From: a phage
Strand: one strand, 5' to 3'
Sequence record: NC_104876.1
Length of the DNA stretch: 40,815 nucleotides
In this document: piece by piece, positions 10,256 through 29,451 of the stretch
Numbering within the stretch: the first letter of the stretch is position 1
How the letters are laid out: the number at the start of each line of letters is the position of its first letter
Notes under the pieces: model-generated
Database searches by the model: none
Seen by the model: only the letters and a program-made list of their open reading frames with translations
What the model was told of the DNA's origin: nothing
Translations under genes and position numbers: made by a program

Positions 10256-11506
10256 TTAAAGTGCGAAAGTCACCGGGATGTTGATTACTGGTTTAACCAC
10301 CGGCATCTCGTAAACTACAGGATAGCCTAGAGCATCCGCCATATGGTCAATGATGCCGTCTTTAGCTGGCTCTCCGTTATCGTCGTATGCCTGCTGCTCC
10401 AGCGTCTTCGCTATCTCAGGGCATAAGTGGTCGTTAATCCACAGTTTACCTTTTTCCAGTGCGGTATTCACGGCTAAAACACGGTCTTTAACCGGAGGGT
10501 TGGCGGATTTAGCGCGAACATCGAAACCTGCCTGCTGGAGTAACGCAATATCTGAGATTGACGCCGAGTTGGTCTTGCGGTTCTTGCCGCTGGCGTCCGG
10601 GTAAACGACTATGCGGTGGCCCTGCGACTTCCACTTCTCAGTAATTACGCGCACGGTATCCGGCGTATCAAACAGACCTTTCAGTTCTGCCACCGCGTGC
10701 CAGCCGTCTTTACGTTGCACATACACGGCGCTGGCGTTCTTCGTAACGTTGAAGTCCTGCCCGATGTACAACGTGTCGCCCGGTTGAATTACCTCTTTGC
10801 TGCGGTGCTTACGGCGGTCATATGCGTAATACACGCTGCCGGAGGTAAGGTTGACGAACTCACCATTCAGATACGCGTTAATCAACTGCGCCGGATAAGT
10901 CTCGGTCAGCGAACTAATGTAGTCAGGTGGCAGGAATCGCGCGTTCTCGTGTGTAGAAGCCTGCACCATCGAGTAACTCGGCGTCGGGTTCTCTTTGAAC
11001 TTGGCGTAGACGAACTTGAACCCTTCCGGTGTCGTGGTGACAGAGATGTGGTTAATTACGCCAGGAATAACAAGACGCATACGGGCCACAATTTTGTTCC
11101 ACGCCAGTTCAGCTTTCTCGCGGCTCAATACATCCAGCTCATCCACGACTGCCGCAGCGATTTTGAAGCCGACGATAGAGCCTGGGTTATCCATCGAACG
11201 GCAGATAACTGTACCGAGCACCGTCTTACCGCGAGTAACCACGACTTCTTTGTCGCCAGATTTAACCAGCACATCGAGGCCGAGCAGGTTAGCGGCTTCC
11301 TCAAATGTCGGGTAGAAGATGTCACGGATAGCCGGGTATGTCGGGCCGAAGTAACCCAGGCGCGTACCTGGATGCTTGAGCATAAACGTAAGCAGGTCAA
11401 GGCAGCCAACAAATGTCTTTCCGCTGCCGAAGCCGCCGACATATGCCTTATATTTGTTATCACAATTCAGGAACAGCGCCTGCGGTGCGGATAGCTGAAT
11501 ACTCAT
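10256..11506 (-). CDS. terL: Terminase large subunit
   Basis: Walker A GGFGSGKT near the N-terminus, 416 aa, overlaps the upstream small-subunit candidate, precedes the portal gene. Confidence 0.75.
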   Translation of the reverse strand: MSIQLSAPQALFLNCDNKYKAYVGGFGSGKTFVGCLDLLTFMLKHPGTRLGYFGPTYPAIRDIFYPTFEEAANLLGLDVLVKSGDKEVVVTRGKTVLGTVICRSMDNPGSIVGFKIAAAVVDELDVLSREKAELAWNKIVARMRLVIPGVINHISVTTTPEGFKFVYAKFKENPTPSYSMVQASTHENARFLPPDYISSLTETYPAQLINAYLNGEFVNLTSGSVYYAYDRRKHRSKEVIQPGDTLYIGQDFNVTKNASAVYVQRKDGWHAVAELKGLFDTPDTVRVITEKWKSQGHRIVVYPDASGKNRKTNSASISDIALLQQAGFDVRAKSANPPVKDRVLAVNTALEKGKLWINDHLCPEIAKTLEQQAYDDNGEPAKDGIIDHMADALGYPVVYEMPVVKPVINIPVTFAL

Positions 11507-12087
11507 TCCTCTACCTCACCCATATTCGTTGTTACAATTTTACCTACAGGCTCTGCAACACTAAAAATAATCTCAGTCGGTGCCGTTTCTTCGGTGGATT
11601 CGACTGGTTTCTCTTTACCGAGGCCCAGTTTAGCTGCGGCGAACGTAGCAGAGATGCCCGCGGCCCCTGTCTCAGTGAAGTACGCCTCTTCCAGTGCCTG
11701 TGCTGTCTCGTATGCTTCTGCAAATGCGGGAATCTCACGCAGCCATAGCTTAATAATAGGGATAGTGACGCCGATGTGTAAGGCAAAGCGGGCCAGTGAC
11801 GGAGGTTTATCCTGAATCAGCGGGCGTTCGTCACCCTTAGACGTAGGCACGAGTTCCCACGACGTGCGGTCGAAGAACTCGATTAGCGCGTCGCAATAAT
11901 CCGGGTCCCACAGTGCGGCGGAATTACGGGATGATTGATAAAGGCTCTGTTTACCGCGCGGTCGTTTACGTCGGCGGTTTGCGCTAACAGCTTCTTCATG
12001 TGCAGCTTGCACCACCTCTGGCGATGGCTGCTTGAGTTTCAGCTTCATATAATCCCCTTGCATATGCGTCTGACCATCAGAGCGCAC
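11503..12087 (-). CDS. Terminase small subunit (putative)
   Basis: Basic N-terminal region, 4-nt overlap with the large terminase gene. Probable start at internal ATG 12046 (MKLKLKQ). Preceded by a promoter-like TATATAAT. Confidence 0.4.
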   Translation of the reverse strand: MRSDGQTHMQGDYMKLKLKQPSPEVVQAAHEEAVSANRRRKRPRGKQSLYQSSRNSAALWDPDYCDALIEFFDRTSWELVPTSKGDERPLIQDKPPSLARFALHIGVTIPIIKLWLREIPAFAEAYETAQALEEAYFTETGAAGISATFAAAKLGLGKEKPVESTEETAPTEIIFSVAEPVGKIVTTNMGEVEE

Positions 12088-16570: not shown

Positions 16571-16771
16571 TTAGTCCTCCAGAACTTCGCATTCACTTGC
16601 ATACACAACTACATACCCCGCGTCACATTCAATAATGAACATATCGGGACCGGCGTGTGTAACCTCAAACTCATCTCCTACTGCAACGCCCCAGTAACTA
16701 AGCGGCAAATCATCGCCATCGCGCAGGTCCACATAATCAACGTCTGTTATACGAATCCTCATTAACGGCAA
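16571..16771 (-). CDS. Hypothetical early protein
   Basis: 66-aa ORF, overlapping start/stop with neighbours. Confidence 0.35.
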   Translation of the reverse strand: MPLMRIRITDVDYVDLRDGDDLPLSYWGVAVGDEFEVTHAGPDMFIIECDAGYVVVYASECEVLED

Positions 16772-17231: not shown

Positions 17232-17602
17232 GAGAATAGTTACGTTGCCGTTGTGATTCTTCAGGTAGGGTTGTGCCTTTATTCTTATTACTTGGTAACT
17301 AAAGGGCGGGCCTTAAGCCTGCCCAATAATCGTTACATTTTTACGGTTGCGAATCTACGGCACTTTAAGAAAATCAGATACTTAAGAGATATGCTGCCGA
17401 TGAGAATAGAGCTTGCCCAGGGCAATCGGAGATACTTAGGAAGGAAAGTTACGATAATTCTCATGTTCAGTAAGCCTGCTGCTTAACCCTTTGCTTAACG
17501 CACGGGTTAAGCATTCTTACAAGGTGAACAGGAATCAAAGTAACTAAGATATAGAAGCACCTTAAACGAAGATTTTCATAATGTCAATAGGTGTGATTAT
17601 GT

Positions 17603-17631
17603 TTGATTTCCCATTATTCGCAATGTATACT
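17603..17631 (+). promoter_or_regulatory. Sigma70-type promoter TTGATT-N17-TATACT for the plus-strand arm
   Basis: -35 17603-17608, -10 17626-17631; first ATG with RBS at 17664. Confidence 0.5.
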
Positions 17632-17663
17632 TGGTTTCGTTAACTGATAATGAGGGTTTGAGA

Positions 17664-17834
17664 ATGACACAGAATGAGGTAGCTGAGCGTATCGGAGTTA
17701 CTCGTCGCACACTAAATAACTGGTTAAAGAGTGGGAAGTTCCCTGATTGCTGTATCCGTATTATGGGCCGCCGACAGCCAGGTACGTTTGACCGAGAGAA
17801 AGTGGAAGCGTGGATTAAGGAGAACGTGAAATGA
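17664..17834 (+). CDS. Small HTH DNA-binding protein (AlpA/excisionase-like regulator)
   Basis: MTQNEVAERIGVTRRTLNNWLKSGKFP looks like a helix-turn-helix. Start set to 17664 (GAGGG RBS) rather than track 17631, which overlaps the promoter -10. Confidence 0.5.
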   Translation: MTQNEVAERIGVTRRTLNNWLKSGKFPDCCIRIMGRRQPGTFDREKVEAWIKENVK

Positions 17835-18064
17835 CCGAGTTCCAGTCGCGCGTATTTACGGCGGTCGTTTCGCTAACACGTAAAAAAGGGTCGTGCAGCG
17901 TTATCGACTTGCGCCGTAGTTATTTTAAGTACTATAGTTCAGCCATTATTGAAGGGTCGTTGAAAGTGCTGGTTAAATCCGGTGTCGTGAAAAATGTTGG
18001 TGGGAAATATAGCGCCGTTGCTGAAGTTCGCGGAATGACCGCTACTTTAGAAGACCTGGAATAA
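17831..18064 (+). CDS. Hypothetical protein with C-terminal LEDLE tail
   Basis: 77-aa ORF, 4-nt overlap with upstream gene, ends ...TATLEDLE. Confidence 0.4.
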   Translation: MTEFQSRVFTAVVSLTRKKGSCSVIDLRRSYFKYYSSAIIEGSLKVLVKSGVVKNVGGKYSAVAEVRGMTATLEDLE

Positions 18065-18121
18065 AAGAAAGCCCCAGCGTTAGAGCGCTGAGGCCAAATT
18101 ACTTGCTGAAGGAAATACAAC

Positions 18122-20362
18122 ATGTCCGATGTAATTTTATCCTACTCGTGGTCTCGTCGCAACGCGCGGGCAGAGAAAAAGGATATAAACGTCAGAACCA
18201 CACACACGGCAACGCTGGACGACCTGAAAGATTTAATCCAGCCGCTTGATGCTGTCCGTGACGGGATTAACCCAAAGACCGCGCCCGGCTATATCACTGC
18301 CGCGTGTGATTCTACACACAGCACCGTGAAAGACCCGGAAACCGGTGACTTTAAGCAAGCGCGTAAGGGTTTCTTCTATCGCTGTGATGCGTCTGTAAGC
18401 AAATCGTCGCTGGCGTATCTGGACTTCGACAGTGCAACGCCGGAAGAGTATCAGGAAGCTGTACGCCTGGTTAAGCGTAGCCGCCAGGCCATGTGCCTCT
18501 ACACTACGGCGTCACATACTGACGAGGCCCCGCGCTTTCGCGTCGTCATGCCGCTGGCCCGCCCGGTCGAAGGAGGCGACATCATCCGTGTTCGTCACGG
18601 ATTGCTTGCGCATTTCTTCAAAGGCATGGGTGCGGACCGCAGCGGGTTCACTTTGTCTCAGCCGATGTACCTGCCGCCGGTTGGCGCTACCGTTATCTGG
18701 TCGCGCCGTAACGACCTGATTGACCCGGACGAATTACTGGAGGGCATCCCGGATTACGAGGTGAGCAGCGCATCGGATTACCAGATACCGGAAGAACTGC
18801 GCACCGCGTTTACAGACGCGTTCGAAGCACTGGCGTTCGAGTATGGCGGTGTTATGACCCCGCGCGGACTGAAAATGCCTGCCACGCCGGAACACGCAGA
18901 AAACTACAGCGACCCGACCCCGCGACCGGATGACTTCCTGCTGTGTTTCCCGCGCGAGGGATATGAAGCGCCTAACGTAACCATGATTCACGATACTGAC
19001 ATCACCGCGACCGAAGGCATGTCGCCGAAAGAGGTGTGGAAGTACGCGTGCGATGCGACCGGGCTACCGTTCAGTGAAGTCGCTGAGGCAATCGGCTGGG
19101 GTGCGCGTGAATCCGTTTCATGCAGCCTCGACGACCTGGAAGACGACGAGGACTCAGAGGAGGACGAGTTACCAGAACCGGTAAAGGCTGATTTCGTCGT
19201 AGAAGGGTACATGCCGTCAGATTGTATCTGGGATATTGTTGGGGAATCCGGCACGTACAAATCGTTTTATACGCTTGGGATGATGTACCTTAGCGCTGCC
19301 GGATACCGGTTTGCGGGGGCGGATACCCAACGTTGTCACCATTTCTATATCGACGGTGAAGGTGGTGCAGCCACGCGCACACGTATTGACGCGCTCGCGG
19401 CTAAATACGGCGAGGAAGGTAAAGATTACGTACATGTCATTGATATGGGCGAAGTCGGCAAACTGAAAAGCCTGATTAAGATAATGCGTGAAATTGCGGG
19501 CGACGAGCCGATTGGCATGGTTGCGTTCGACACCCTCAACCAGACGCTGGCCCTGACGATTGATAAGTTCGACGAGAACAGTTCATCAACGGCAATCGGC
19601 ATGGGTAAAGTTATCGCCATCCTGAAAGAAGTGCGCGATGCCACTAAAGCCGCGGTAGGCGTTGTCCATCATACGCCGAAGGGCGGAAAGAAAGCCCGCG
19701 GCAGTGGGGCATTGTATGCTGGCGTCGACGTGGAACTGACAATCGAACGCGCCACTGACCGTCAGATAAACGTATATCATTCTAAATTTAAGCATGGGCC
19801 TCAACAGAAGACGGTTGGCATGGTGCTGGAGTCTGTGCAGTTCCGTGAAGCCCCGCCGCCGAAAGAATACCGTGCTGTTGAGTTCCTCGGCAGCACCGAG
19901 GAATATGGCACAATCGTAAACCTCGACCTGCCTGAGCCTCACAAGGCGCTTGTGCTGATGCCGTGGGGCTTCGAGCCGTTCAAGACCGACGAGGAGAAAG
20001 AGCGTGAAGAAGGGCTGACAAAGGAAGGTAAAGAAAACGTAAAGAATGCTGTAAAACGCGGGAAGGATGAAGGGCGTAAGGAATCAATACTCGCCGCGCT
20101 GGAAGACCTGCAACAGTCCGACGACACCGGACGAGGTTTTACCCAACGGCAGATAGTAGCTAACTCTGGCGACCACGCCATAACCAGCCATCATCTTGAG
20201 AAGATGCTGAAAGACGGCGAGTTGATGCTCGGGTGTGATGTTAACGGTGAAGTTATACCGGGAACATACCGGATACCGGAAAAGATGGGTGACAGATTAA
20301 GGCCGAAGACAATATACGAACCGAATGAGATGCTGGTGGTGACAGAGGAGGATTTGGAATAG
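18122..20362 (+). CDS. Primase-helicase (prim-pol-like N-terminal region plus RecA-like ATPase)
   Basis: Walker A VGESGTYKS and Walker B GMVAFD in the central region; acidic linker DDLEDDEDSEEDE; 746 aa; ends ...TEEDLE. Confidence 0.6.
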   Translation: MSDVILSYSWSRRNARAEKKDINVRTTHTATLDDLKDLIQPLDAVRDGINPKTAPGYITAACDSTHSTVKDPETGDFKQARKGFFYRCDASVSKSSLAYLDFDSATPEEYQEAVRLVKRSRQAMCLYTTASHTDEAPRFRVVMPLARPVEGGDIIRVRHGLLAHFFKGMGADRSGFTLSQPMYLPPVGATVIWSRRNDLIDPDELLEGIPDYEVSSASDYQIPEELRTAFTDAFEALAFEYGGVMTPRGLKMPATPEHAENYSDPTPRPDDFLLCFPREGYEAPNVTMIHDTDITATEGMSPKEVWKYACDATGLPFSEVAEAIGWGARESVSCSLDDLEDDEDSEEDELPEPVKADFVVEGYMPSDCIWDIVGESGTYKSFYTLGMMYLSAAGYRFAGADTQRCHHFYIDGEGGAATRTRIDALAAKYGEEGKDYVHVIDMGEVGKLKSLIKIMREIAGDEPIGMVAFDTLNQTLALTIDKFDENSSSTAIGMGKVIAILKEVRDATKAAVGVVHHTPKGGKKARGSGALYAGVDVELTIERATDRQINVYHSKFKHGPQQKTVGMVLESVQFREAPPPKEYRAVEFLGSTEEYGTIVNLDLPEPHKALVLMPWGFEPFKTDEEKEREEGLTKEGKENVKNAVKRGKDEGRKESILAALEDLQQSDDTGRGFTQRQIVANSGDHAITSHHLEKMLKDGELMLGCDVNGEVIPGTYRIPEKMGDRLRPKTIYEPNEMLVVTEEDLE

Positions 20363-20381
20363 GTAAAAAAAGAAAGGGGCA

Positions 20382-20597
20382 TTAAGCCCCCTCACCTAAC
20401 GCCAGCCACTTGGCGTCTACTTGCAGCACTTCCGCCAGTTTAAACAGCGTCGCCGGGCGGACGTCCTGAGTTACACCGAGTGCAAGCTGGTTAATTGCGC
20501 CTTGGGAAACACCGGCCAGGACAGCCAGACGGCGCTGGGAGATGCCGAGTTCTTTGCGGCGTTGCTCTACACGGATACCTAGTTCAGATGGTTGCAT
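20382..20597 (-). CDS. XRE-family HTH transcriptional regulator (Cro/CI-like)
   Basis: LGISQRRLAVLAGVSQGAINQLALG is a classic XRE-type HTH; 71 aa; divergent from the operator-bearing promoter region 20627-20690. Confidence 0.65.
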   Translation of the reverse strand: MQPSELGIRVEQRRKELGISQRRLAVLAGVSQGAINQLALGVTQDVRPATLFKLAEVLQVDAKWLALGEGA

Positions 20598-20661
20598 GTC
20601 AATTACTCCTTAGTCAGTTGATATGTGAATAGTACCATATTAATTATTTTAGAAAAGCCCA

Positions 20662-20690
20662 TTGACATGTGAATAGTTCGCTATTATAGT
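20662..20690 (+). promoter_or_regulatory. Promoter TTGACA-N17-TATAGT with embedded operator GAATAGTTCGCTATTAT; second operator-like site at 20627-20643
   Basis: -35 20662-20667, -10 20685-20690; inverted repeat AATAG-N4-CTATT 20672-20685; upstream site GAATAGTACCATATTAA. Confidence 0.6.
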
Positions 20691-20720
20691 TAGCCCATAC
20701 CAAACGAGAGGAGAGATAAA

Positions 20721-20882
20721 ATGAAGTTCAGCGTAGACGTAATACCGACAGAAGAGATGCTAAAAGCGGGTATAGACCAACTGCTCGACGTAATACCAGG
20801 CCTCGAGGATGAAGTCGATGAAGAGCAACTGTCAGACGCCGTTTGTTTTATCTGGCAAGCAATGATTCAAGAGTCAAAATAA
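20721..20882 (+). CDS. Small acidic hypothetical protein
   Basis: 53-aa ORF with GAGGAGAG RBS directly after the promoter; not in track (under 60 aa). Confidence 0.35.
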   Translation: MKFSVDVIPTEEMLKAGIDQLLDVIPGLEDEVDEEQLSDAVCFIWQAMIQESK

Positions 20883-20897
20883 ACAGGAGAACAAATA

Positions 20898-21386
20898 ATG
20901 TTAGACCAATTCTTAAAATTACTGGAACGTTTCGTAGTTGCGCATGAACTGATCGCAGCGAACAGCGTGAAACAACCTGTGTATGAACTTAAGGCAGATG
21001 CAAACATCGCAGATAGTGTTCGTGATGTTGTTGTGAAAGAAGTAACGAAAGAAATCCCGGTAGAAGGTGAAGACACCGTTGACACTAAACCAGCAGAAGA
21101 AGAGAAGCCGAATCGCAAGCCGCGTAAAGCTAAAGTAGAGGAGCCAACGCCAGAGCCGGAAGAAGAGAAAGAAGAAGTCGATTATCAGTCTCTGCGCGAC
21201 CAGATTCAGGCTATCGACGATGCGATTAACGAAGGTCCGAGCGATGCCGCGTGCGATGACTCCGATGAACTGCTGGAAGAGTTCACCGGTAAGAAGATGA
21301 AGATTGCAGCGATTAAAGACGAAGACCTGGCTGAGTACCTGGAGCGCCTGACAGCAATCAAGAACAAGTATTTCGAAGAAGAATAA
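20898..21386 (+). CDS. Highly acidic hypothetical protein
   Basis: 162 aa, Glu/Asp-rich throughout; AGGAGA RBS; followed by weak hairpin 21394-21409. Confidence 0.45.
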   Translation: MLDQFLKLLERFVVAHELIAANSVKQPVYELKADANIADSVRDVVVKEVTKEIPVEGEDTVDTKPAEEEKPNRKPRKAKVEEPTPEPEEEKEEVDYQSLRDQIQAIDDAINEGPSDAACDDSDELLEEFTGKKMKIAAIKDEDLAEYLERLTAIKNKYFEEE

Positions 21387-21429
21387 CTATCCCGCGGCCT
21401 TCGGGCCGCTTTAACTGAGGGTCGGAATT

Positions 21430-21744
21430 ATGAAATACGAAAATTTAACAGACATAGAAATTAACGCACGGGTTAGCCGTGCGCTATGGGGCGATGTTTC
21501 TCGAGGACATCAGATGGAGTTAGCTTCTGGAGCGGTAGACTATTGTAATCGGATAGAGGACGCGTGGCCTATTATTGAAGAAAACAACATCAGCCTGATT
21601 TTAGATAACCCGACAATGCCGTGTGCAACGTCAAACGCTCGGGATTTATTTAACGACGACGATACAGAAGTGGGTGTTGCCTATGACAAGCCACTCCGCG
21701 CGGCCATGATAGTCTTTCTGGAAATGCAGGAGAAGGCGCAATGA
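21430..21744 (+). CDS. Hypothetical protein
   Basis: 104-aa ORF; 4-nt overlap with next gene. Confidence 0.4.
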   Translation: MKYENLTDIEINARVSRALWGDVSRGHQMELASGAVDYCNRIEDAWPIIEENNISLILDNPTMPCATSNARDLFNDDDTEVGVAYDKPLRAAMIVFLEMQEKAQ

Positions 21745-22019
21745 TTTACCAACTCTACCGAGCCGTTGACAGACGGGACAACACAGAGGCTCTATGGCTG
21801 TTGCGTGCGCCGTCTGGTGCGCACCAGATGGAAGAGATGGCGTACTTAGGCAAAGTACCGCGGCCTAAAGATATAGGCCGTCACGTGTCGCAGATTAAGC
21901 GCACGACATTCGCCAAACCTGACTTTTATGTCTTTGAGTCGATGTATGGGTGGGCTATGCACTGCGAGCATAAGACACGACATTTAATTGACCAGTGGGA
22001 GAGCAGAGCATGTTTGTAA
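21741..22019 (+). CDS. Hypothetical protein
   Basis: 92-aa ORF; followed by a coupled 46-aa acidic ORF (22010-22150). Confidence 0.4.
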   Translation: MIYQLYRAVDRRDNTEALWLLRAPSGAHQMEEMAYLGKVPRPKDIGRHVSQIKRTTFAKPDFYVFESMYGWAMHCEHKTRHLIDQWESRACL

Positions 22020-22146
22020 TTATGTATTCAATCGGTGAGGAAGAGTACGAACATAGTAGATACCTTACATCCGCAGAGGCCGAGAATATGATACACGAAC
22101 TTGACGCTGACAGTTTCGGCTACGCATGGATTGAGGAGATTGCGGA

Positions 22147-23388
22147 ATGATTCTTAAAGAACGCGGTGGAAATAACGATGTTCACGCATTACTGTCGCCG
22201 TCTGGGGCTAAAAAGTGGCTAAGCTGTGCCGCATCACTGGCCTGTGAGAAAGATATTCCTAACTCGTCCGGCAAAGCTGCCGTATTAGGTACAGCAATGC
22301 ACACCATAGCAGAGATGCATCTTAACCAGTACATCAAAGGCACTGCGCTGCCGTTAGAGCGCGAAGTCGGGGCTTACGTGCTGGATGAAGGTAAAGGCCA
22401 GATTAAGGCTCTAATCAGCCCGATGAAAGGCGCGGTACTTATTACGGCGGACATGATTGAACAGGTGCGCAAGTACACCGACTATTGTAAGGCGATTATC
22501 GATGTAGCGACTTACGCTAAGCTGGAAATGCGCGTCAATCTTACTGAGGTATTGCATCCGGGTTATGAGGGCGTTGAGACGTTCGGAACCGCTGACATCG
22601 TTGCCGTTCAGGAACTGGCAAACACTGACGAGCACATGCTAATTATCGGCGACCTTAAAACCGGGCGGCGTCGTGTCGAAGCGAAAGAAAACAAGCAGCT
22701 TATGCTTTACGCTCTCGGTGTTTATCGCCGACTCAAGAGACGTTATAACATAACAACCGTTCGTCTGGTCATCTTCCAGCCGTATGCTGGCTGTGCGTCG
22801 GAGTGGGGCATCTCGGTTGAAGGTCTGGAACTGTTCGCTAAGTTTGCACATAAACGCGCGCTGTTAGCCCTTGATGCGTATTTCCGTGGCAAGAAGAACC
22901 TGAAAGCGTCGGATTTCAGGCCGTCGGTCGATGGTTGTCAGTGGTGTCGGTTCTCTGAACAATGTGCCGCGCGTACAAAGACGGTTAATTCTGTACTGGC
23001 GGAAGAACTAGAAGACGACTTTGTGCTGGAACTTACGCCGGAGCAACTCGTAGCTGAGTATGAGAAGTTGCCGTTGTTGCGCCAGCACATCGACAAGGTT
23101 GAAAAAGCGATGGCAGCCGCTTTGCATTCCGGTAAGAAAGTGCCGGGTTACAAGCTGGTTGAAGGTCGCCAGGGTAATCGTGCGTGGAAAGACGCGGAGA
23201 AAGTAACAGAACTCTACGGCGACAAGCTGACTAAAGAAGTGCTCATGACGCCGACCGAAGCTGTTAAAGTAATACCGGAGGAAGAACTGAAAGACTTCAT
23301 CACGCGTAAACCGGGGGCGCCATGTGTCGCAACGGTAGACGACAAACGTCCTGAGTGGAATCAGGTTAGTGAAGAAGATTTAGAATAA
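22147..23388 (+). CDS. PD-(D/E)XK exonuclease, Cas4/RecB-like with probable Fe-S cluster
   Basis: Nuclease motifs GTADIV...IIGDLKTG...QLMLYALG; Cys cluster C...CQWCRFSEQC; 413 aa; ends ...SEEDLE. Confidence 0.55.
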   Translation: MILKERGGNNDVHALLSPSGAKKWLSCAASLACEKDIPNSSGKAAVLGTAMHTIAEMHLNQYIKGTALPLEREVGAYVLDEGKGQIKALISPMKGAVLITADMIEQVRKYTDYCKAIIDVATYAKLEMRVNLTEVLHPGYEGVETFGTADIVAVQELANTDEHMLIIGDLKTGRRRVEAKENKQLMLYALGVYRRLKRRYNITTVRLVIFQPYAGCASEWGISVEGLELFAKFAHKRALLALDAYFRGKKNLKASDFRPSVDGCQWCRFSEQCAARTKTVNSVLAEELEDDFVLELTPEQLVAEYEKLPLLRQHIDKVEKAMAAALHSGKKVPGYKLVEGRQGNRAWKDAEKVTELYGDKLTKEVLMTPTEAVKVIPEEELKDFITRKPGAPCVATVDDKRPEWNQVSEEDLE

Positions 23389-23392
23389 AGTG

Positions 23393-23421
23393 TTGACACC
23401 TGAATAGTTAGCTATTATAGT
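23393..23421 (+). promoter_or_regulatory. Promoter TTGACA-N17-TATAGT with embedded operator GAATAGTTAGCTATTAT
   Basis: -35 23393-23398, -10 23416-23421; inverted repeat 23403-23416. Confidence 0.6.
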
Positions 23422-23487
23422 TCTAATCACTGGCCGGGCAGTTCCCGGAGTAAACTTTGAAATATAAACTGAAAAGCGAGAAATCAA

Positions 23488-24114
23488 ATGGGACTGAAAC
23501 TGAATCTGCGTAAAGTAAACACTGCATGGGTTAACGTATTCGAACGCGAAAAAGACCGTGAAAACGATGATGGCTCAATCACTAAAGGCCAGTACAGCGC
23601 GACTATCATCCTGTCGCCGGACCATGCTCAAATCGACGCGCTCTACGACACTGTTTACGCAGTAGTCGAAGAAGCATTAGGCGCAGCCGCAGCCGAGAAG
23701 TGGATGAAGTCCAACTACGGCGAAGGTAAGCACATGGATAAATGTGCGATTAAAGACATTGCCGAGCGCGACAATCCGTTTGAAGACTTCCCGGAAGGCT
23801 TCTACTTCAAGGCGAAGGCACAGAAACAGCCACTGATTGTAACCTCTAAAAAAGGCGAGACTCAGGTAGAACAGGACTTCAACGTAGACGGCGAACAGAT
23901 TGAAGGTGAACAAGTTTACAGCGGCTGCGTCGCTAACGTAAGCGTCGAAATCTGGTTCAGCCAGAAATATAAAGTTCTCGGGGTTAACCTGCTGGCGATT
24001 AAATACGTAGGCGAAGGTAAAGCGTTCGGTGGTTCTAAAGTCGCCGCAAGCGTCAACGACCTGGAAGACGACGAAGAAGATGAAGCACCGCGCCGCGAGC
24101 GTCGTCGCCGCTAA
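23488..24114 (+). CDS. Putative ssDNA-binding or annealing protein (hypothetical)
   Basis: 208-aa ORF directly upstream of the DNA polymerase gene, with an acidic stretch DLEDDEEDE followed by a basic tail RRERRRR. Function is inferred from position only. Confidence 0.3.
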   Translation: MGLKLNLRKVNTAWVNVFEREKDRENDDGSITKGQYSATIILSPDHAQIDALYDTVYAVVEEALGAAAAEKWMKSNYGEGKHMDKCAIKDIAERDNPFEDFPEGFYFKAKAQKQPLIVTSKKGETQVEQDFNVDGEQIEGEQVYSGCVANVSVEIWFSQKYKVLGVNLLAIKYVGEGKAFGGSKVAASVNDLEDDEEDEAPRRERRRR

Positions 24115-24134
24115 TATCTGAATCAATTTAACTA

Positions 24135-24156
24135 AGGCCCTTCATTGGGTCTTTTT
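24135..24156 (+). terminator. Putative intrinsic terminator or attenuator upstream of the polymerase gene
   Basis: AGGCCC-TTCATT-GGGTCT hairpin (one G-U pair) followed by TTTTT. Confidence 0.4.
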
Positions 24157-24173
24157 ACTAAGGGTCGAAAATA

Positions 24174-26354
24174 ATGAGTTACCTGTTCTTAGACTTTGAA
24201 ACATTCTCCGGAGCCGATTTAAAGAAATTCGGCTCCTATGCTTACGCCGAACACCAGACTACCGAAGTGCTTATCTGTACCTATGCTTTTGACGACGAGC
24301 CTGTACAGGTATGGGATTGCACCAACGGCAGCGACATGCCGGGTGATTTGCACCGCGCGTTACGCCGTCTGGTGAAACCAAACAGTCGCATTAAGATGGT
24401 GTGGCACAACGGCTCAATGTTCGACAGGCTCATAATGAAGCATTGCTGGGACTTTGATATTCCGGTAAGCAACACCATTGATACGATGATTTGGGCGTTT
24501 CGTCACGCGCTGCCGGGTTCTCTTGATGCGCTGTGCGAAGTGCTTGGCGTGTCTGCAGACAACGCGAAAGACAAACGAGGCAAAGCGCTTATTCAGCGTT
24601 TCTCTAAACCGACGCCGAAGAACTACAAAATTCGCCGCTACACTGCTGAAACGCACCCGGATGAGTGGGCGCTGTTCATCAAGTACGCCGTTAGCGACAT
24701 CACCGCGATGCGTGAAGTGTTCCATAAGTTGCCGCGTTGGGGTAACTCCGAGTTCGAAGACCGTGTGCTGGAACTGGACCAGTTAATCAACGACCGCGGG
24801 TTTAAGGTTGACGTTGCACTGGCGGAGGCCGCGATTGAAGCCGTGGAGAAACACAAAGCGCAGTTACAGGAAGAAGCCCAACGTAAATACGGCGGCGCGC
24901 TTACCGGAAAGGACTTCCTTCCTATTCTGCGTGAACTCGCACCGGCGCACCGTATTCACAACGCACAGAAGTCTACGCTTAACGACCTGCTTGCTGACGA
25001 TGATTTACCGGACGACGCCCGCACGATTATAGAAATGCGCCTCGGGGCGGCATCCACTGCGTCAACGAAATATAACCCGCTGCTGTTAGGTCGCTCGTCT
25101 GACGACCGCCGTCGCGGTTGCATCCAGTATGGTGGAGCTAAACGTACGTTACGATTTGCGGGTAAAGGCTTCCAGCCGCAGAACCTGGCGCGTGGGTACT
25201 ATCACGATGATGAACTGGATAAAGGTATTTCAGCATTACTTAAGGGCCGAGCACATCGCCGTTTTGATGTAGCCAAGCTAACGGCATCTACGGTTCGCAG
25301 CTGCATTATCCCGGAAGCCGGGCATAAGTTTGTCGTCGCTGACTACTCGAACGTTGAAGGCCGCGGTTTGGCGTGGCTGGCTGGAGAAGAAACCGCGCTT
25401 GATACGTTCCGTGCCGGGCTGGATATTTACTGCGTAACCGCAGGCAAGATGTTCGGCATGGAGCCGGATTACATTAAGAAAGAACGTAAAGACTTACGCC
25501 AGATTGGTAAGGCATGCGAACTTGGACTTGGCTACGCGGGTGGTGTCGGCGCATTCGTACAGTTCGCCAAGAACCTCGGCCTTGACCTTGTTGATATGGC
25601 AAAAACAATGGACGGGACTTTCCCCGACCACATCTGGGCTGCTACCGCACGTGGATATGAGTGGGCGCGTATTCAGGAAGCCAAGCGACCACCACGTCCA
25701 GGTGAAAATGATGACCGACCATCTTATATTCTTGATAAGAAAGTGTGGCGCACCTGTGACGCTATCAAACGCATGTGGCGCGAGGCTCACCCGAAAACAG
25801 TAGCGTTCTGGCGTGATATTGAAGACGCAGCTATGGCGGCTATCCGCAATCCAGGCAAAGAGTTCACCGCGGGGCCGCGGGGAGTTAAGTTTTCGCGCAA
25901 CGTAGAAACGGACAACAACGGCAACAAAGTCGCCGGTTGGTGGTTGCGGATGACGTTGCCGTCGGGCCGCGTTATGTCTTATCCGGGTGTTGGGCTAAGC
26001 GTGTCGAAAGAGACAGACGAAGACGGGAAGGTGTCTACCAACGTGCACATCAAGTACCAGGGCGAAAACCAGTTAACCCGTCAGTGGGGCTTCCAGTACA
26101 CCTACTCTGGTAAACTGGTGGAAAACTGCACTCAGGCGCTGTGCCGTGATTTGTTGGCTAATGCGCTGCTTAACGTAGAAGCAAACGGCTATCCGATTGT
26201 GCTTCATGTTCACGATGAGATTATCTGCGAGACACCAGATTTACCAGAATACAATGTCGCAGAACTGGAACGATTGATGTGCGAATTACCAGAGTGGGCC
26301 GAGGGGTTCCCTCTTGTAGCAGAAGGCGCGGAGATGAAGCGTTATGCCAAGTAA
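24174..26354 (+). CDS. DNA polymerase, family A, with 3'-5' exonuclease domain
   Basis: Exo motifs LFLDFETFS, HNGSMFDRLI, YAVSDI; polymerase motif A DYSNVEGRGLAWLAGEE, motif B RQIGKACELGLGYAGG, motif C HVHDEI; 726 aa. Confidence 0.8.
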   Translation: MSYLFLDFETFSGADLKKFGSYAYAEHQTTEVLICTYAFDDEPVQVWDCTNGSDMPGDLHRALRRLVKPNSRIKMVWHNGSMFDRLIMKHCWDFDIPVSNTIDTMIWAFRHALPGSLDALCEVLGVSADNAKDKRGKALIQRFSKPTPKNYKIRRYTAETHPDEWALFIKYAVSDITAMREVFHKLPRWGNSEFEDRVLELDQLINDRGFKVDVALAEAAIEAVEKHKAQLQEEAQRKYGGALTGKDFLPILRELAPAHRIHNAQKSTLNDLLADDDLPDDARTIIEMRLGAASTASTKYNPLLLGRSSDDRRRGCIQYGGAKRTLRFAGKGFQPQNLARGYYHDDELDKGISALLKGRAHRRFDVAKLTASTVRSCIIPEAGHKFVVADYSNVEGRGLAWLAGEETALDTFRAGLDIYCVTAGKMFGMEPDYIKKERKDLRQIGKACELGLGYAGGVGAFVQFAKNLGLDLVDMAKTMDGTFPDHIWAATARGYEWARIQEAKRPPRPGENDDRPSYILDKKVWRTCDAIKRMWREAHPKTVAFWRDIEDAAMAAIRNPGKEFTAGPRGVKFSRNVETDNNGNKVAGWWLRMTLPSGRVMSYPGVGLSVSKETDEDGKVSTNVHIKYQGENQLTRQWGFQYTYSGKLVENCTQALCRDLLANALLNVEANGYPIVLHVHDEIICETPDLPEYNVAELERLMCELPEWAEGFPLVAEGAEMKRYAK

Positions 26355-27213: not shown

Positions 27214-28034
27214 ACTATTACAACGAATGGGATAAAGGCGCAGCCGCGTGGCTGCGTGAATTAATAAAACATGGTCACATACCTTTTGGAGTTGTAGATG
27301 AAAGAAGCATTACCGAAGTTAAGCCAGAAGACCTTGACGGGTTCACCCAGTGTCATTTTTTCGCTGGTATCGGCGGCTGGCCTCTCGCGCTCAGACTTGC
27401 GGGAGTTTCGGAGGATACGCCTCTCTGGACGGGAAGCCCGCCTTGCCAACCGTTTAGCACGGCAGGAAAACAACTCGGACAGTTCGACCAGAGACACCTC
27501 GCGCCGGTCTTCCTCGACCTCATCAGCGAGTGCCGCCCTCCAGTCATCTTTGGGGAGCAGGTTGCGGCAGCAATTGCAAAATCGTGGATGTGCGATTTAC
27601 AAGCTCACCTGGAAGGAGAAGACTACGCCGTCGGGTTTGCTGTACTCCCAGCTTGTAGCGTCGGCGCACCGCACAAAAGAGAACGACTCTTCTTTGGCGC
27701 GCACGAACTGGCCTACACCGACAGCGAACGACTTCAGAGGGAGCGGAGAGACAGTGATTCGCACGGACGGGAGAGACAGAACATTCGACAGGCTGGACTA
27801 CTCAACAGAGCAGGGATTGAAAGCGAGTCAACCAACCCGCACCACGGCTTCTGGTCAGATGCTGACTGGCTCGGATGCCGTGATGGAAAGTTCCGGCCGG
27901 TTGAACCCGGCGCATTCCCGCTGGCTAATGGGATACCCGCAAGAGTGGGACGATTGCGCGGTTACGGCAATGCCATCGTCCCGCAAGTAGCCGCCGAATT
28001 TATAAAGGCGTTTATGGGGGCCGTAAATGAGTAA
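27210..28034 (+). CDS. DNA (cytosine-5)-methyltransferase-like protein; reading frame appears interrupted (possible pseudogene or sequence error)
   Basis: Frame of 27210 carries motif [44 protein letters not shown] and [10 protein letters not shown]. Motif IX-like [17 protein letters not shown] lies in the +1 frame (27298..27990). Confidence 0.5.
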
Positions 28035-29451
28035 GTTTCAAAGGCGCGAATACCAGAAGCTCATGACTTCGTTCATGCTGCAACACCATCGCTGTAATAT
28101 TTGGGCGAGCATGGGCGCCGGGAAGACTGGCAGCGTCCTGTGGACTTTAAACCGCCTGTTCCGCAACGGGCAACTTACGGACGACGACCGCGTGTTAATT
28201 CTCGCCCCGTTGCGCGTTGCATCAGGTACATGGCCGGCAGAACAAGAGAAATGGCGATTCCCGTGCCTGCGCGTCGTAGATGCGACCGGGTCAGAGAAGC
28301 GCCGCATCGCGGCACTGGAGTCTGATGCTAACGTGGTGTGCACTAACTACGAAGTTATCGAGTGGCTGATCGACTACTACGGCAAAGATGACTGGCCTTT
28401 TACGGTTATCGTTGCCGATGAGAGCACGAAGCTGAAATCATTCCGCAGCCGTTCAGGTGGTAGCAAGCGGGCAAAGGCGCTCAGTAAGGTGGCGTTTGGA
28501 AAGGTTAAGCGTTTTATAAACCTTACCGGCACGCCATCACCAAACGGCCTCAAGGACTTGTGGGGTCAGAACTGGTTTATCGACGCTGGCGAACGCCTAG
28601 GGTCCTCATATACGGCATTCACCGACCGATGGTTTAACTCGGTACAGAAAGGTAAGTCAGCGATGGCGCGTGAGTATCATGCGCGCCCGGGTGCGGATAA
28701 TGAGATTCATCAGAAGATGAAAGACATCAGTCTCACGATTGACGCCGCCGAGTGGTTCGGATGTGAAGCGCCGATTATTGTACCGGTTGAAATCGACCTG
28801 CCGAAGAAGGCGCGCCAGGCGTACATTGATATGGAGGAGAAGCTATTCGCGGAACTGGAGAGCGGAGAAGTTGAAGCGGCTAATGCGGCAGCGAAGACGT
28901 CGAAGTGCCTACAGATTGCATCCGGTGCCGTGTATGTGTCAGGGCCAGACGGTGAAGCAACGAAAGACTGGGAGAAAGTGCACGACACGAAACTGGATGC
29001 GCTCGAGTCCATTGTTGAGGAGTTACAGGGGGCGCCGTTACTGGTCGCCTATCAGTTCAAGCACGAACTGGAGCGCATCCTCAAGCGCTTCCCGCAGGCG
29101 CAGGCTTTTGCAAAAGGCGCGAAGGGCAATAAGCAGATGGAAGCGTGGAACCGTGGCGAAATCGAAATCCTATGCGTGCACCCCGCGTCAGCCGGCCATG
29201 GTTTGAATTTACAGGACGGCGGACATCATCTGGCGTTTATTTCGCAAGGCTGGAACCTTGAGCACTATTTGCAGGTTGTCGAGCGTATAGGCCCGGTGCG
29301 CCAGAAGCAGGCGGGCCACGAGCGACCAGTGTTCCTCTATCACATCGTTGCTAAAGACACGCTGGACGAGGTTGTTGCCTCGCGTACTGACGAGAAGAAA
29401 TCGGTCCAGGAAGAGTTGCTTAATTACATGAAGAGACGAGGTAAGAAATGA
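28027..29451 (+). CDS. SNF2-family helicase
   Basis: Walker A SMGAGKTG, DExx box VIVADEST, C-terminal helicase domain; 474 aa; overlaps methyltransferase stop. Confidence 0.65.
   Translation: MSKFQRREYQKLMTSFMLQHHRCNIWASMGAGKTGSVLWTLNRLFRNGQLTDDDRVLILAPLRVASGTWPAEQEKWRFPCLRVVDATGSEKRRIAALESDANVVCTNYEVIEWLIDYYGKDDWPFTVIVADESTKLKSFRSRSGGSKRAKALSKVAFGKVKRFINLTGTPSPNGLKDLWGQNWFIDAGERLGSSYTAFTDRWFNSVQKGKSAMAREYHARPGADNEIHQKMKDISLTIDAAEWFGCEAPIIVPVEIDLPKKARQAYIDMEEKLFAELESGEVEAANAAAKTSKCLQIASGAVYVSGPDGEATKDWEKVHDTKLDALESIVEELQGAPLLVAYQFKHELERILKRFPQAQAFAKGAKGNKQMEAWNRGEIEILCVHPASAGHGLNLQDGGHHLAFISQGWNLEHYLQVVERIGPVRQKQAGHERPVFLYHIVAKDTLDEVVASRTDEKKSVQEELLNYMKRRGKK

Follow-up and report, generated by a model that had tools for sequence, protein, structure and literature searches.

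A short acidic leucine motif is shared by replication and recombination proteins of a Kagunavirus-type phage and probably serves as a common docking peptide

The DNA analysed here (hereafter the window, meaning the whole 40,815-nt stretch of phage record NC_104876.1) is that of a Kagunavirus-type phage; a megablast search with positions 17600-24200 returned 447 phage records, and the best matches are Escherichia phages of the genus Kagunavirus (Guernseyvirinae) with ~90% identity. Four proteins encoded in its replication arm carry a short acidic motif centred on Asp-Leu, which is seen in its plainest form as the C-terminal tetrapeptide EDLE that three of them have in common. The four proteins are the following.

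17831-18064, plus strand: p77, a 77-residue predicted winged-helix protein with a flexible C-terminal tail bearing the motif (phrog_5169, function unassigned; no Pfam match).
18122-20362, plus strand: primase-helicase with an N-terminal primase-like region and an AAA_25 helicase core (Pfam AAA_25, E=2.5e-17; phrog_3228 'replicative helicase-primase', E=5.8e-301).
22147-23388, plus strand: nuclease of the DUF2800 / PD-(D/E)XK (Cas4/RecB-like) type (Pfam DUF2800, E=8.3e-68; PDDEXK_1, E=5.6e-9).
23488-24114, plus strand: T7-type (gp2.5/Enc34-like) single-stranded DNA (ssDNA)-binding and annealing protein (SSB; Pfam Enc34_ssDNA-bd, PF10991, E=8.9e-15, residues 5-198).

The motif occurs on them five times, twice in the primase-helicase, and in the SSB it is followed by a basic end.

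18038-18061, plus strand: copy 1, TATLEDLE, C-terminus of p77 (LEDLE at 18047-18061).
19121-19168, plus strand: copy 2, CSLDDLEDDEDSEEDE, linker between the primase and helicase parts of the primase-helicase.
20339-20359, plus strand: copy 3, VTEEDLE, C-terminus of the primase-helicase (EEDLE at 20345-20359, stop at 20360-20362).
23365-23385, plus strand: copy 4, VSEEDLE, C-terminus of the nuclease (EEDLE at 23371-23385).
24046-24084, plus strand: copy 5, ASVNDLEDDEEDE, immediately after the SSB fold.
24085-24114, plus strand: conserved basic end of the SSB tail, APRRERRRR, followed by the stop.

An earlier note, made from the sequence alone, had pointed out that the three C-termini end identically in EDLE; all its sequences and coordinates for them proved correct, and the sharing exceeds what chance would give. 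Among all 284 open reading frames (ORFs) of at least 40 residues on both strands, a C-terminus of the form [DE][DE]L[DE] is limited to p77, the primase-helicase and the nuclease, and the pattern [DE]DLE is present in no other ORF. EDLE is the terminal tetrapeptide of 3 of the 63 non-overlapping ORFs. When the last 40 residues of each protein were shuffled with their composition kept, a terminal tetrapeptide common to three proteins never arose in 20,000 shuffles, and one common to two arose in 2.5%. The three ends use different Leu codons (CTG, TTG and TTA) and stops (TAA, TAG and TAA) and lie in unrelated flanking DNA, and because of this we conclude that selection on them acts at the level of protein and not on a DNA repeat, a terminator or a ribosome-binding site. 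The ends might be read as an acidic low-complexity coincidence or as a nucleotide-level signal (a terminator, the ribosome-binding site of the next gene or a repeat), and GAGGAGGA in the helicase end does resemble a Shine-Dalgarno sequence. We rejected this explanation on the grounds of the shuffles, the codon usage and the unrelated flanks. What lies downstream differs too: the helicase end is followed by a convergent gene, the p77 and nuclease ends by gaps of 57 nt (18064 to 18122) and 99 nt (23388 to 23488). Moreover, the motif is retained across ~60% protein divergence; the probability that we leave to such an origin is negligible.

The five copies appear to represent one short linear motif, approximately [AVC][ST]x[DENS]DL[ED], placed on flexible tails or linkers (NEMLVVTEEDLE is an example of the peptide). 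Its core is [ST]x[DENS]DL instead of the acidic pentapeptide that had been put forward as the shared unit, and the internal DLEDDE stretches that had been set apart as a feature of two proteins are indeed present in the primase-helicase and the SSB, but as further copies of the same motif. The copies have the properties of short linear motifs: they are short, the tail of p77 is flexible, DL is conserved between variable flanks, and the carriers are non-homologous proteins spanning four folds (winged-helix, AAA_25 helicase, PD-(D/E)XK nuclease and OB-fold SSB). The AlphaFold2 (AF2) model of p77 has a mean pLDDT of 87.4 (more than 90 over residues 1-62, 60-68 in the tail) and consists of three helices and a beta hairpin; its Foldseek matches in the PDB were winged-helix domains (the MotA N-terminal domain, the LexA DNA-binding domain, PerR, IdeR and RPA32C) with TM scores of 0.6-0.7 and weak E-values of at least 0.0085. 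On this model p77 is predicted to be a winged-helix protein, and some winged-helix domains, such as RPA32C, bind proteins rather than DNA. The nuclease matches DUF2800 (PF10926) over the full length of the model (positions 1-368 of 368, residues 13-402), and its tail falls outside the domain model. The SSB is of the gp2.5 structural type, matching also phrog_112 'Gp2.5-like' (E=7.2e-41) and, as weak PDB sequence matches, 4jg2 and Enc34 5odj. Unlike the three C-terminal copies, its motif is internal and is followed by the basic block; relatives (the SSBs of Cornellvirus, the L020 lineage and Dhillonvirus; the SSB genes of L003, L020, L025 and L026) contain 2 to 5 repeats of an acidic/basic block of the type DDDEDEAPRKRRK. 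Such a block-polyampholyte tail is unusual for an SSB, and the alternation of acidic and basic segments in the Guernseyvirinae and the Dhillonvirus branch may add multivalent, condensate-like clustering.

We compared the window with annotated relatives (Bas73, Jerseyvirus SE126_1pH, Cornellvirus Shemara, STP-1 and Dhillonvirus Over9000) and with 79 IMG/VR loci. Absence from close homologues had been named in the earlier note as an observation that would speak against a functional motif; on the contrary, Kagunavirus, Jerseyvirus, Cornellvirus, STP-1, Dhillonvirus and IMG/VR lineages all retain the motif, behind linkers that vary. Among these relatives p77 is limited to Kaguna- and Jerseyvirus, and all its listed homologues have the tail, mostly as ..TLEDLE, with the variants ..LEELE and ..LEDLA and, in Jerseyvirus, ..ATPEDLE. 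Orthologues of the primase-helicase end in ..TTEGDLE, ..SEEDDLEN, ..ASDEDLNS, ..AADEDLE, ..ATDDDLKD or ..DDDLAD, and at the corresponding place in the linker Jerseyvirus has TCDEEDLDDEE and the L020 lineage has QCTDEDLDDD. The nucleases of relatives end in ..VTEDDLEA, ..ATDSDLED, ..ATDNDLAN, ..VSDEDLS or ..ATDEDLSNE; DL is present in 120/120 close cluster representatives, and D411 and L412 are invariant in an alignment of 11 sequences reaching down to 39% identity. At the SSB site, where D191, L192, E193, D194 and D195 are invariant down to 61% identity, relatives have ..ASVDDLEDDE, ATDSDLDDDDD, ANDDDLDDDD, ATDDDLGDDDD or CSDEDLDNDDEDE. The strict motif was found within the last 30 residues of 30/42 primase-helicases, 10/10 p77 proteins, 34/80 nucleases and 29/71 SSBs, as against 4 of 1858 other ORFs, and in none of the 73 polymerases, 54 VRR-NUC proteins and 68 SNF2 helicases. 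The polymerases end instead in ..YRYAK, ..FYRKD or ..FYMKD.

The motif of the window is the local form of a much wider one. A search with the DUF2800 family gave 11,638 relatives at E<=0.001 and 5563 at E<=1e-10, and we took the tails of the best 150 representatives at 50% clustering. In most of these 150, the conserved fold end ..SDKRPA.. is followed by a DDFEDL, DEFDDV or DDFEVV-like motif, often with an acidic run and a hydrophobic end behind it. In the IMG/VR loci the adjacent gp2.5-like SSB shows this motif too, directly behind its fold, and its end is often that of the nuclease: the nuclease and SSB tails read ..NDFDDVEAAESLI and ..EDDFDDVSEGADAESLI in L053, and ..SSDFDDLTAEEESLV and ..DDEFDDLTEGADADALV in L045; in Staphylococcus phage phiSa2wa they read ..AEDDFDKL and ..AEDDFDELDTDDEDFL. 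A third version, ..SDTDYPDE.. and ..SDSDYPDC.., was found on the nuclease and SSB of a metagenomic lineage. In the Guernseyvirinae/Dhillonvirus branch, Leu takes the place of the aromatic residue of the DDFEDL-type motif. The likeness of nuclease and SSB tails is greater within a genome than between genomes, with a mean local score of 26.4 against 22.0 (permutation p=5e-5; 25 representatives with less than 60% nuclease identity), and the last 4-6 residues aligned from the C-terminus gave p=0.002-0.004 in 21 representatives of the aromatic type. SSB genes are also present in L051, L059 and L073. Other proteins have acquired such tails independently: unrelated D5_N/Prim-Pol primase-helicases end in ..VKDDFENVEDARA, ..VSADFADLDTPNN and ..NTSDFDEVE (also given as ..DDFENVEDARA, ..ADFADLDTPNN and ..SDFDEVE), a 94-residue Xre-type helix-turn-helix (HTH) protein encoded beside such a primase-helicase ends in ..DDFEDLTQEENAE, and a Cro-like protein has the SSB tip ..SLV. 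These small HTH proteins of other lineages appear to parallel p77. One metagenomic gp2.5-like SSB (L092, 1477-2151) ends in ..DDGEDIPF, the bacterial SSB tip, and has further upstream an SDxDYPD motif in common with the neighbouring nuclease.

The tails change in concert in the Casjensviridae, the family of the crystallised Enc34 SSB. In Chivirus FSL SP-030, a Salmonella phage with 70 genes, the primase, gp04, nuclease, SSB, TerS, gp18, a PAPS-reductase-like protein, RdgC and gp62 have tips of the form ..[DE][DE]V, mostly ..DEV, whereas in the Pseudomonas phage vB_Pae-SS2019XI (Maxdohrnvirus) the primase, gp74, nuclease, SSB, TerS, gp8, gp47, RdgC and a ParB-like protein end in ..[DE]DL. About 10 proteins per genome bear the terminal peptide of the SSB in both phages, and among the carriers is a small protein whose gene comes after that of the major capsid protein. 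BLAST confirmed seven orthologous pairs (primase, gp04/gp74, nuclease, SSB, TerS, gp18/gp8 and RdgC) that switch their last residues together, from ..[DE][DE]V in FSL SP-030 to ..[DE]DL in SS2019XI. A switch in seven pairs at once fits a common co-evolving receptor, and would be the pattern expected of one, not of independent cis-acting tails or of composition.

The arm corresponds to the duf2800-gp2.5-polA module, which has already been described (PMC8093625). The other genes of the arm are as follows.

17631-17834: HTH_17 protein of the rightward arm.
20898-21386, plus strand: acidic 162-residue protein (phrog_3127; no Pfam match).
24174-26354, plus strand: family A DNA polymerase (Pfam DNA_pol_A and 3'-5' exonuclease), without the tail.
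Downstream of the polymerase: VRR-NUC protein, C5 methylase and SNF2 helicase.

The acidic 162-residue protein ends in a conserved aromatic-acidic tail of its own (KYFEEE here; KYYEIEE, TYFELED and KYYDAE in relatives) and has a DDFEDL-like segment, DSDELLEE here and D[EK]FD[DE]LLE in relatives. Its positional counterparts in the Casjensviridae, gp04 and gp74 (phrog_7721), bear the common tail of their lineage; we do not claim homology, as the correspondence is one of position and architecture only (phrog_3127 vs phrog_7721). Two proteins on the minus strand have ends of related appearance. The probable terminase small subunit (11503-12087) ends in ..NMGEVEE and fits a relaxed acidic-hydrophobic-acidic pattern with a background of 10/1858 ORFs; we did not accept it as an extra copy because its Jerseyvirus and STP-1 orthologues lack this end. 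A 66-residue early protein (16571-16771) ends in ..ECEVLED; two homologues (phmmer E ~1e-14) have exactly this heptapeptide behind residues that differ, and it may be a related tail. Among relatives the polymerase has 726-757 residues in some and ~1032 in others (L002, L009, L016-L018 vs window 24174-26354), and the SNF2 helicase has either 474 or 821 (the same loci vs window 28027-29451), which suggests inteins or homing-endonuclease insertions in some genomes. Directly after the stop of the primase-helicase, at 20363-20400, we noticed by eye a run rich in A and a hairpin, GGGGC-ATTAA-GCCCC. Its position between the primase-helicase and a convergent Xre-like gene (20382-20597, minus strand) makes it probably a bidirectional terminator. 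The nuclease is homologous to Dhillonvirus nucleases (~46% identity), and the DUF2800 nuclease of Dhillonvirus Bas14 has been reported as the trigger of retron type IX (Sen3) in a preprint that also mentions its 'C-terminal disordered region' without interpreting it (10.64898/2026.07.14.737667). By analogy, the window nuclease might be sensed by a retron too.

We consider it probable that the EDLE motif is a functional common docking peptide with a phage-encoded receptor. Tips differ among phages of the same host (T7 ..DF, Chivirus ..DEV, Kagunavirus ..DLE, Dhillonvirus ..DLKD), and DDFEDL is common to phages of unrelated hosts, which belong to different phyla, so that the reader of the tail is most likely encoded by the phage. 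It could be imagined that the tail is read outside the replication machinery, as a degron for a protease (a phage HslV-like peptidase or a host AAA+ protease) or by a hijacked host protein. The position of the motif at the extreme C-terminus of three proteins would suit this, as would the annotation of an HslV-family peptidase in Kagunavirus relatives and the fact that Chivirus and Maxdohrnvirus differ in both hosts and tips. However, two copies are internal (SSB tail and helicase linker), members of the motif family are present in Staphylococcus, Pseudomonas and enterobacterial phages and in metagenomic lineages, the tips of the E. coli and Salmonella phages just named all differ, and the tails bear no likeness to ssrA-type (..LAA) or SSB-Ct (..DDDIPF) endings, and we regard such a reader as very unlikely. 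It also seems quite unlikely that the tails have no common partner, each being an auto-inhibitory DNA mimic that folds onto its own protein's DNA-binding surface and answers a common physicochemical need. All carriers bind or process DNA, and published reports describe competition between the gp2.5 tail and ssDNA in the protein's own cleft and an altered DNA selectivity of Enc34 on removal of its tail; but four different folds would need no identical [ST]xxDL core, seven orthologues would have no need to switch their last two residues in concert between two genera, and the tails of one genome would not resemble each other more than those of different genomes.

As the receptor we propose the ssDNA-binding groove of the SSB, a proposal that on the present comparisons has close to an even chance of being right. 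It is made because crystals of Enc34 ORF6, of two further DUF2815 proteins and of T7 gp2.5 show the C-termini resting in the DNA-binding sheet of the adjacent molecule, with 842 A2 buried (PMC5686142), because the motif is kept where a PolB-like enzyme takes the place of PolA, and because TerS, RdgC and ParB-like proteins as carriers in the Casjensviridae fit an SSB-type hub better than a polymerase tether. At the position of the window Leu, Enc34 has Tyr (..SDAYDEDEDEW..) and 4JG2 has Phe (..ADDFTTIEDD). A T7-type SSB and a polymerase are constant components across all lineages; in L051, L059, L060 and L084 the polymerase slot holds a PolB-like enzyme of ~590-620 residues (phrog_1252; Sulfolobus PolB1 and E. 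coli Pol II as sequence hits in the PDB; no similarity to the window polymerase), and in all four loci the nuclease and SSB still have the motif in common. The phage DNA polymerase itself, to which the same tag would tether the primase-helicase, SSB, nuclease and p77, is the receptor in T7, where experiments have established that the gp4 and gp2.5 tails bind to basic patches on the polymerase gp5 in competition with each other. The window likewise has a T7-type SSB and a family A polymerase, and the polymerase is tail-less, as expected of a receptor. The unchanged motif in the four PolB-like loci argues against it, and TerS, RdgC, the ParB-like protein and the small head-region protein of the Casjensviridae would be odd clients of a polymerase; besides, part of the basic patches in T7 belongs to the thioredoxin-binding insertion, a feature confined to T7-like polymerases. 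We therefore hold the polymerase to be a serious but, as the sole answer, rather unlikely alternative, and both receptors may be true, as in T7, where the gp2.5 tail and ssDNA also compete for the cleft of the SSB itself.

The best overall explanation, that the tails copy the SSB tail and dock in the SSB groove, stands in our estimate evenly balanced, and several points weigh against it. The experimentally established receptor in T7 is the polymerase, and the crystal contacts could be packing effects. The basic extension behind the SSB copy is unexplained by docking, and the AF2 model of the full-length SSB (mean pLDDT 36.5 from an 11-sequence alignment) was unusable and is not interpreted. 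The permutation tests reduce but do not fully remove phylogenetic non-independence, and the matching of other ORFs to the SSB tip in 20-kb loci was marginal (p=0.01-0.06). In L090 and L091 the DUF2800 nuclease lacks the motif though the neighbouring SSB has it; the motif-less nucleases comprise one on a 3-kb contig without an SSB, two beside a motif-bearing SSB and one with the other common motif, DYPD. Finally, truncations of the Bas14 nuclease are tolerated (10.64898/2026.07.14.737667), and therefore at least that copy of the motif is dispensable in the laboratory.

In the docking scheme that we propose, p77, the primase-helicase (with two copies per subunit) and the nuclease would each bear a copy of the SSB's own tail and could thereby occupy the site of that tail, the basic ssDNA-binding groove of the gp2.5-like annealase, where an acidic peptide with Leu would mimic ssDNA. 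Each carrier would keep hold of free SSB, or recruit it, and pass it on to the ssDNA that it produces; the annealase would be loaded, for example, by the nuclease on the resected strand and by the helicase on the lagging strand. Alternatively, a carrier could use its tail to prise SSB off DNA that it must reach. Both ssDNA and the SSB's own tail would compete with docking. p77 and similar small HTH proteins are likely to be adaptors that bring the machinery to specific DNA. More tentatively, and with somewhat less than an even chance in our view, a lineage-private 'tail code' may operate in phages with a T7-type SSB, in that the C-terminal peptide of the SSB is copied onto every protein working on SSB-covered DNA (nuclease, primase-helicase, small (winged) HTH proteins, SNF2, TerS, RdgC and ParB-like proteins, up to ~10 per genome) and drifts in concert within a lineage (DLE, DEV, DDL, ESLI, DF). 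If so, the replication, recombination and packaging machinery would be orthogonal to that of co-infecting phages and of the host, and the window would be one clear instance of an undescribed general organising principle.

The principle that acidic, hydrophobic-tipped tails of an SSB and a helicase-primase are used for docking is known from T7, so the docking tail itself is no surprise to specialists; its breadth and concerted co-variation are unexpected. Our literature search found no description of tail sharing outside T7, although most subscription journals lay beyond it and novelty is thus unproven. As far as that search shows, there is no earlier description of the Leu-type motif, of its occurrence on a PD-(D/E)XK nuclease, on a winged-helix protein and on a primase-helicase not of the gp4 type, of its generality across the duf2800-gp2.5-pol module or of its concerted lineage-specific change. 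To our knowledge, T7 is the only phage system in which the sharing of acidic tails among replisome proteins has been worked out, for two proteins. The same principle now appears in a siphophage group unrelated to T7, with a different peptide and new carriers (a resection nuclease, a winged-helix protein and the non-gp4 primase-helicase), and the sequence comparisons suggest that the sharing is general for the widespread duf2800-gp2.5-pol module. The seven-residue motif offers a handle for mapping the replisome or recombination hub in phages without biochemistry, including the engineerable Kagunaviruses of the BASEL collection, and it gives a testable portability rule for gp2.5-type annealase/nuclease pairs in recombineering, namely that the tails must match. 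It might also explain how such phages keep their DNA machinery apart from the host SSB network.

The closest known system is that of T7 gp4 (..DWSNDTDF) and gp2.5 (..EADEDGDF). As in T7, a T7-type SSB has an acidic tail with a critical hydrophobic residue near its end (the Leu is invariant in the window lineage), and the same kind of tail is present on the SSB (..SVNDLEDDE..) and on the replicative helicase-primase (..TEEDLE and ..SLDDLEDDE..); the T7 tails are disordered and compete for a basic site, the counterpart of which in the window we only infer. Unlike in T7, the window tail has Leu and then Glu after a conserved Ser/Thr and not a terminal Phe, and other lineages have Phe, Trp or Tyr at the equivalent place. 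Carriers of the motif also include a PD-(D/E)XK nuclease and a winged-helix protein, each helicase subunit has it twice, and in the SSB it is internal, with a basic extension behind it. Nor is the helicase-primase homologous to gp4; it has an AAA_25 core, whereas the core of gp4 is DnaB-like.

Bacterial SSB likewise organises many genome-maintenance proteins by an acidic-hydrophobic peptide on a flexible tail (..DDDIPF), but the topology is inverted: one tail meets many receptors in bacteria, whereas many proteins have one tail in the window phage. None of the window proteins has the bacterial SSB-Ct ending D-D-D-[IL]-P-F. The beta-clamp motif, a pentapeptide with the consensus QL[SD]LF or of the QxxLxxF type, is absent from the EDLE tails (..TEEDLE), which contain no Gln and no aromatic residue. 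T4 gp32 also has an acidic tail that modulates DNA binding, on an unrelated SSB fold; its acidic C-terminal domain recruits partners, and we know of no report of this tail copied onto the partner proteins. Enc34 ORF6 and the other DUF2815 (PF10991) SSBs belong to the same family as the window SSB and have acidic tails with an aromatic residue at the Leu position; the Enc34 publication treats the tail as a feature of the SSB only and makes no mention of its sharing with nuclease, primase or other proteins (PMC5686142). Lambda Exo-Red-beta and RecE-RecT resemble the window in that a nuclease is encoded side by side with a single-strand annealing protein, and the exonuclease is believed to load the annealase on the strand that it exposes (PMC6393309). 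In lambda, however, a folded C-terminal domain of the annealase binds the nuclease, whereas in the window the nuclease itself bears a short copy of the annealase's tail.

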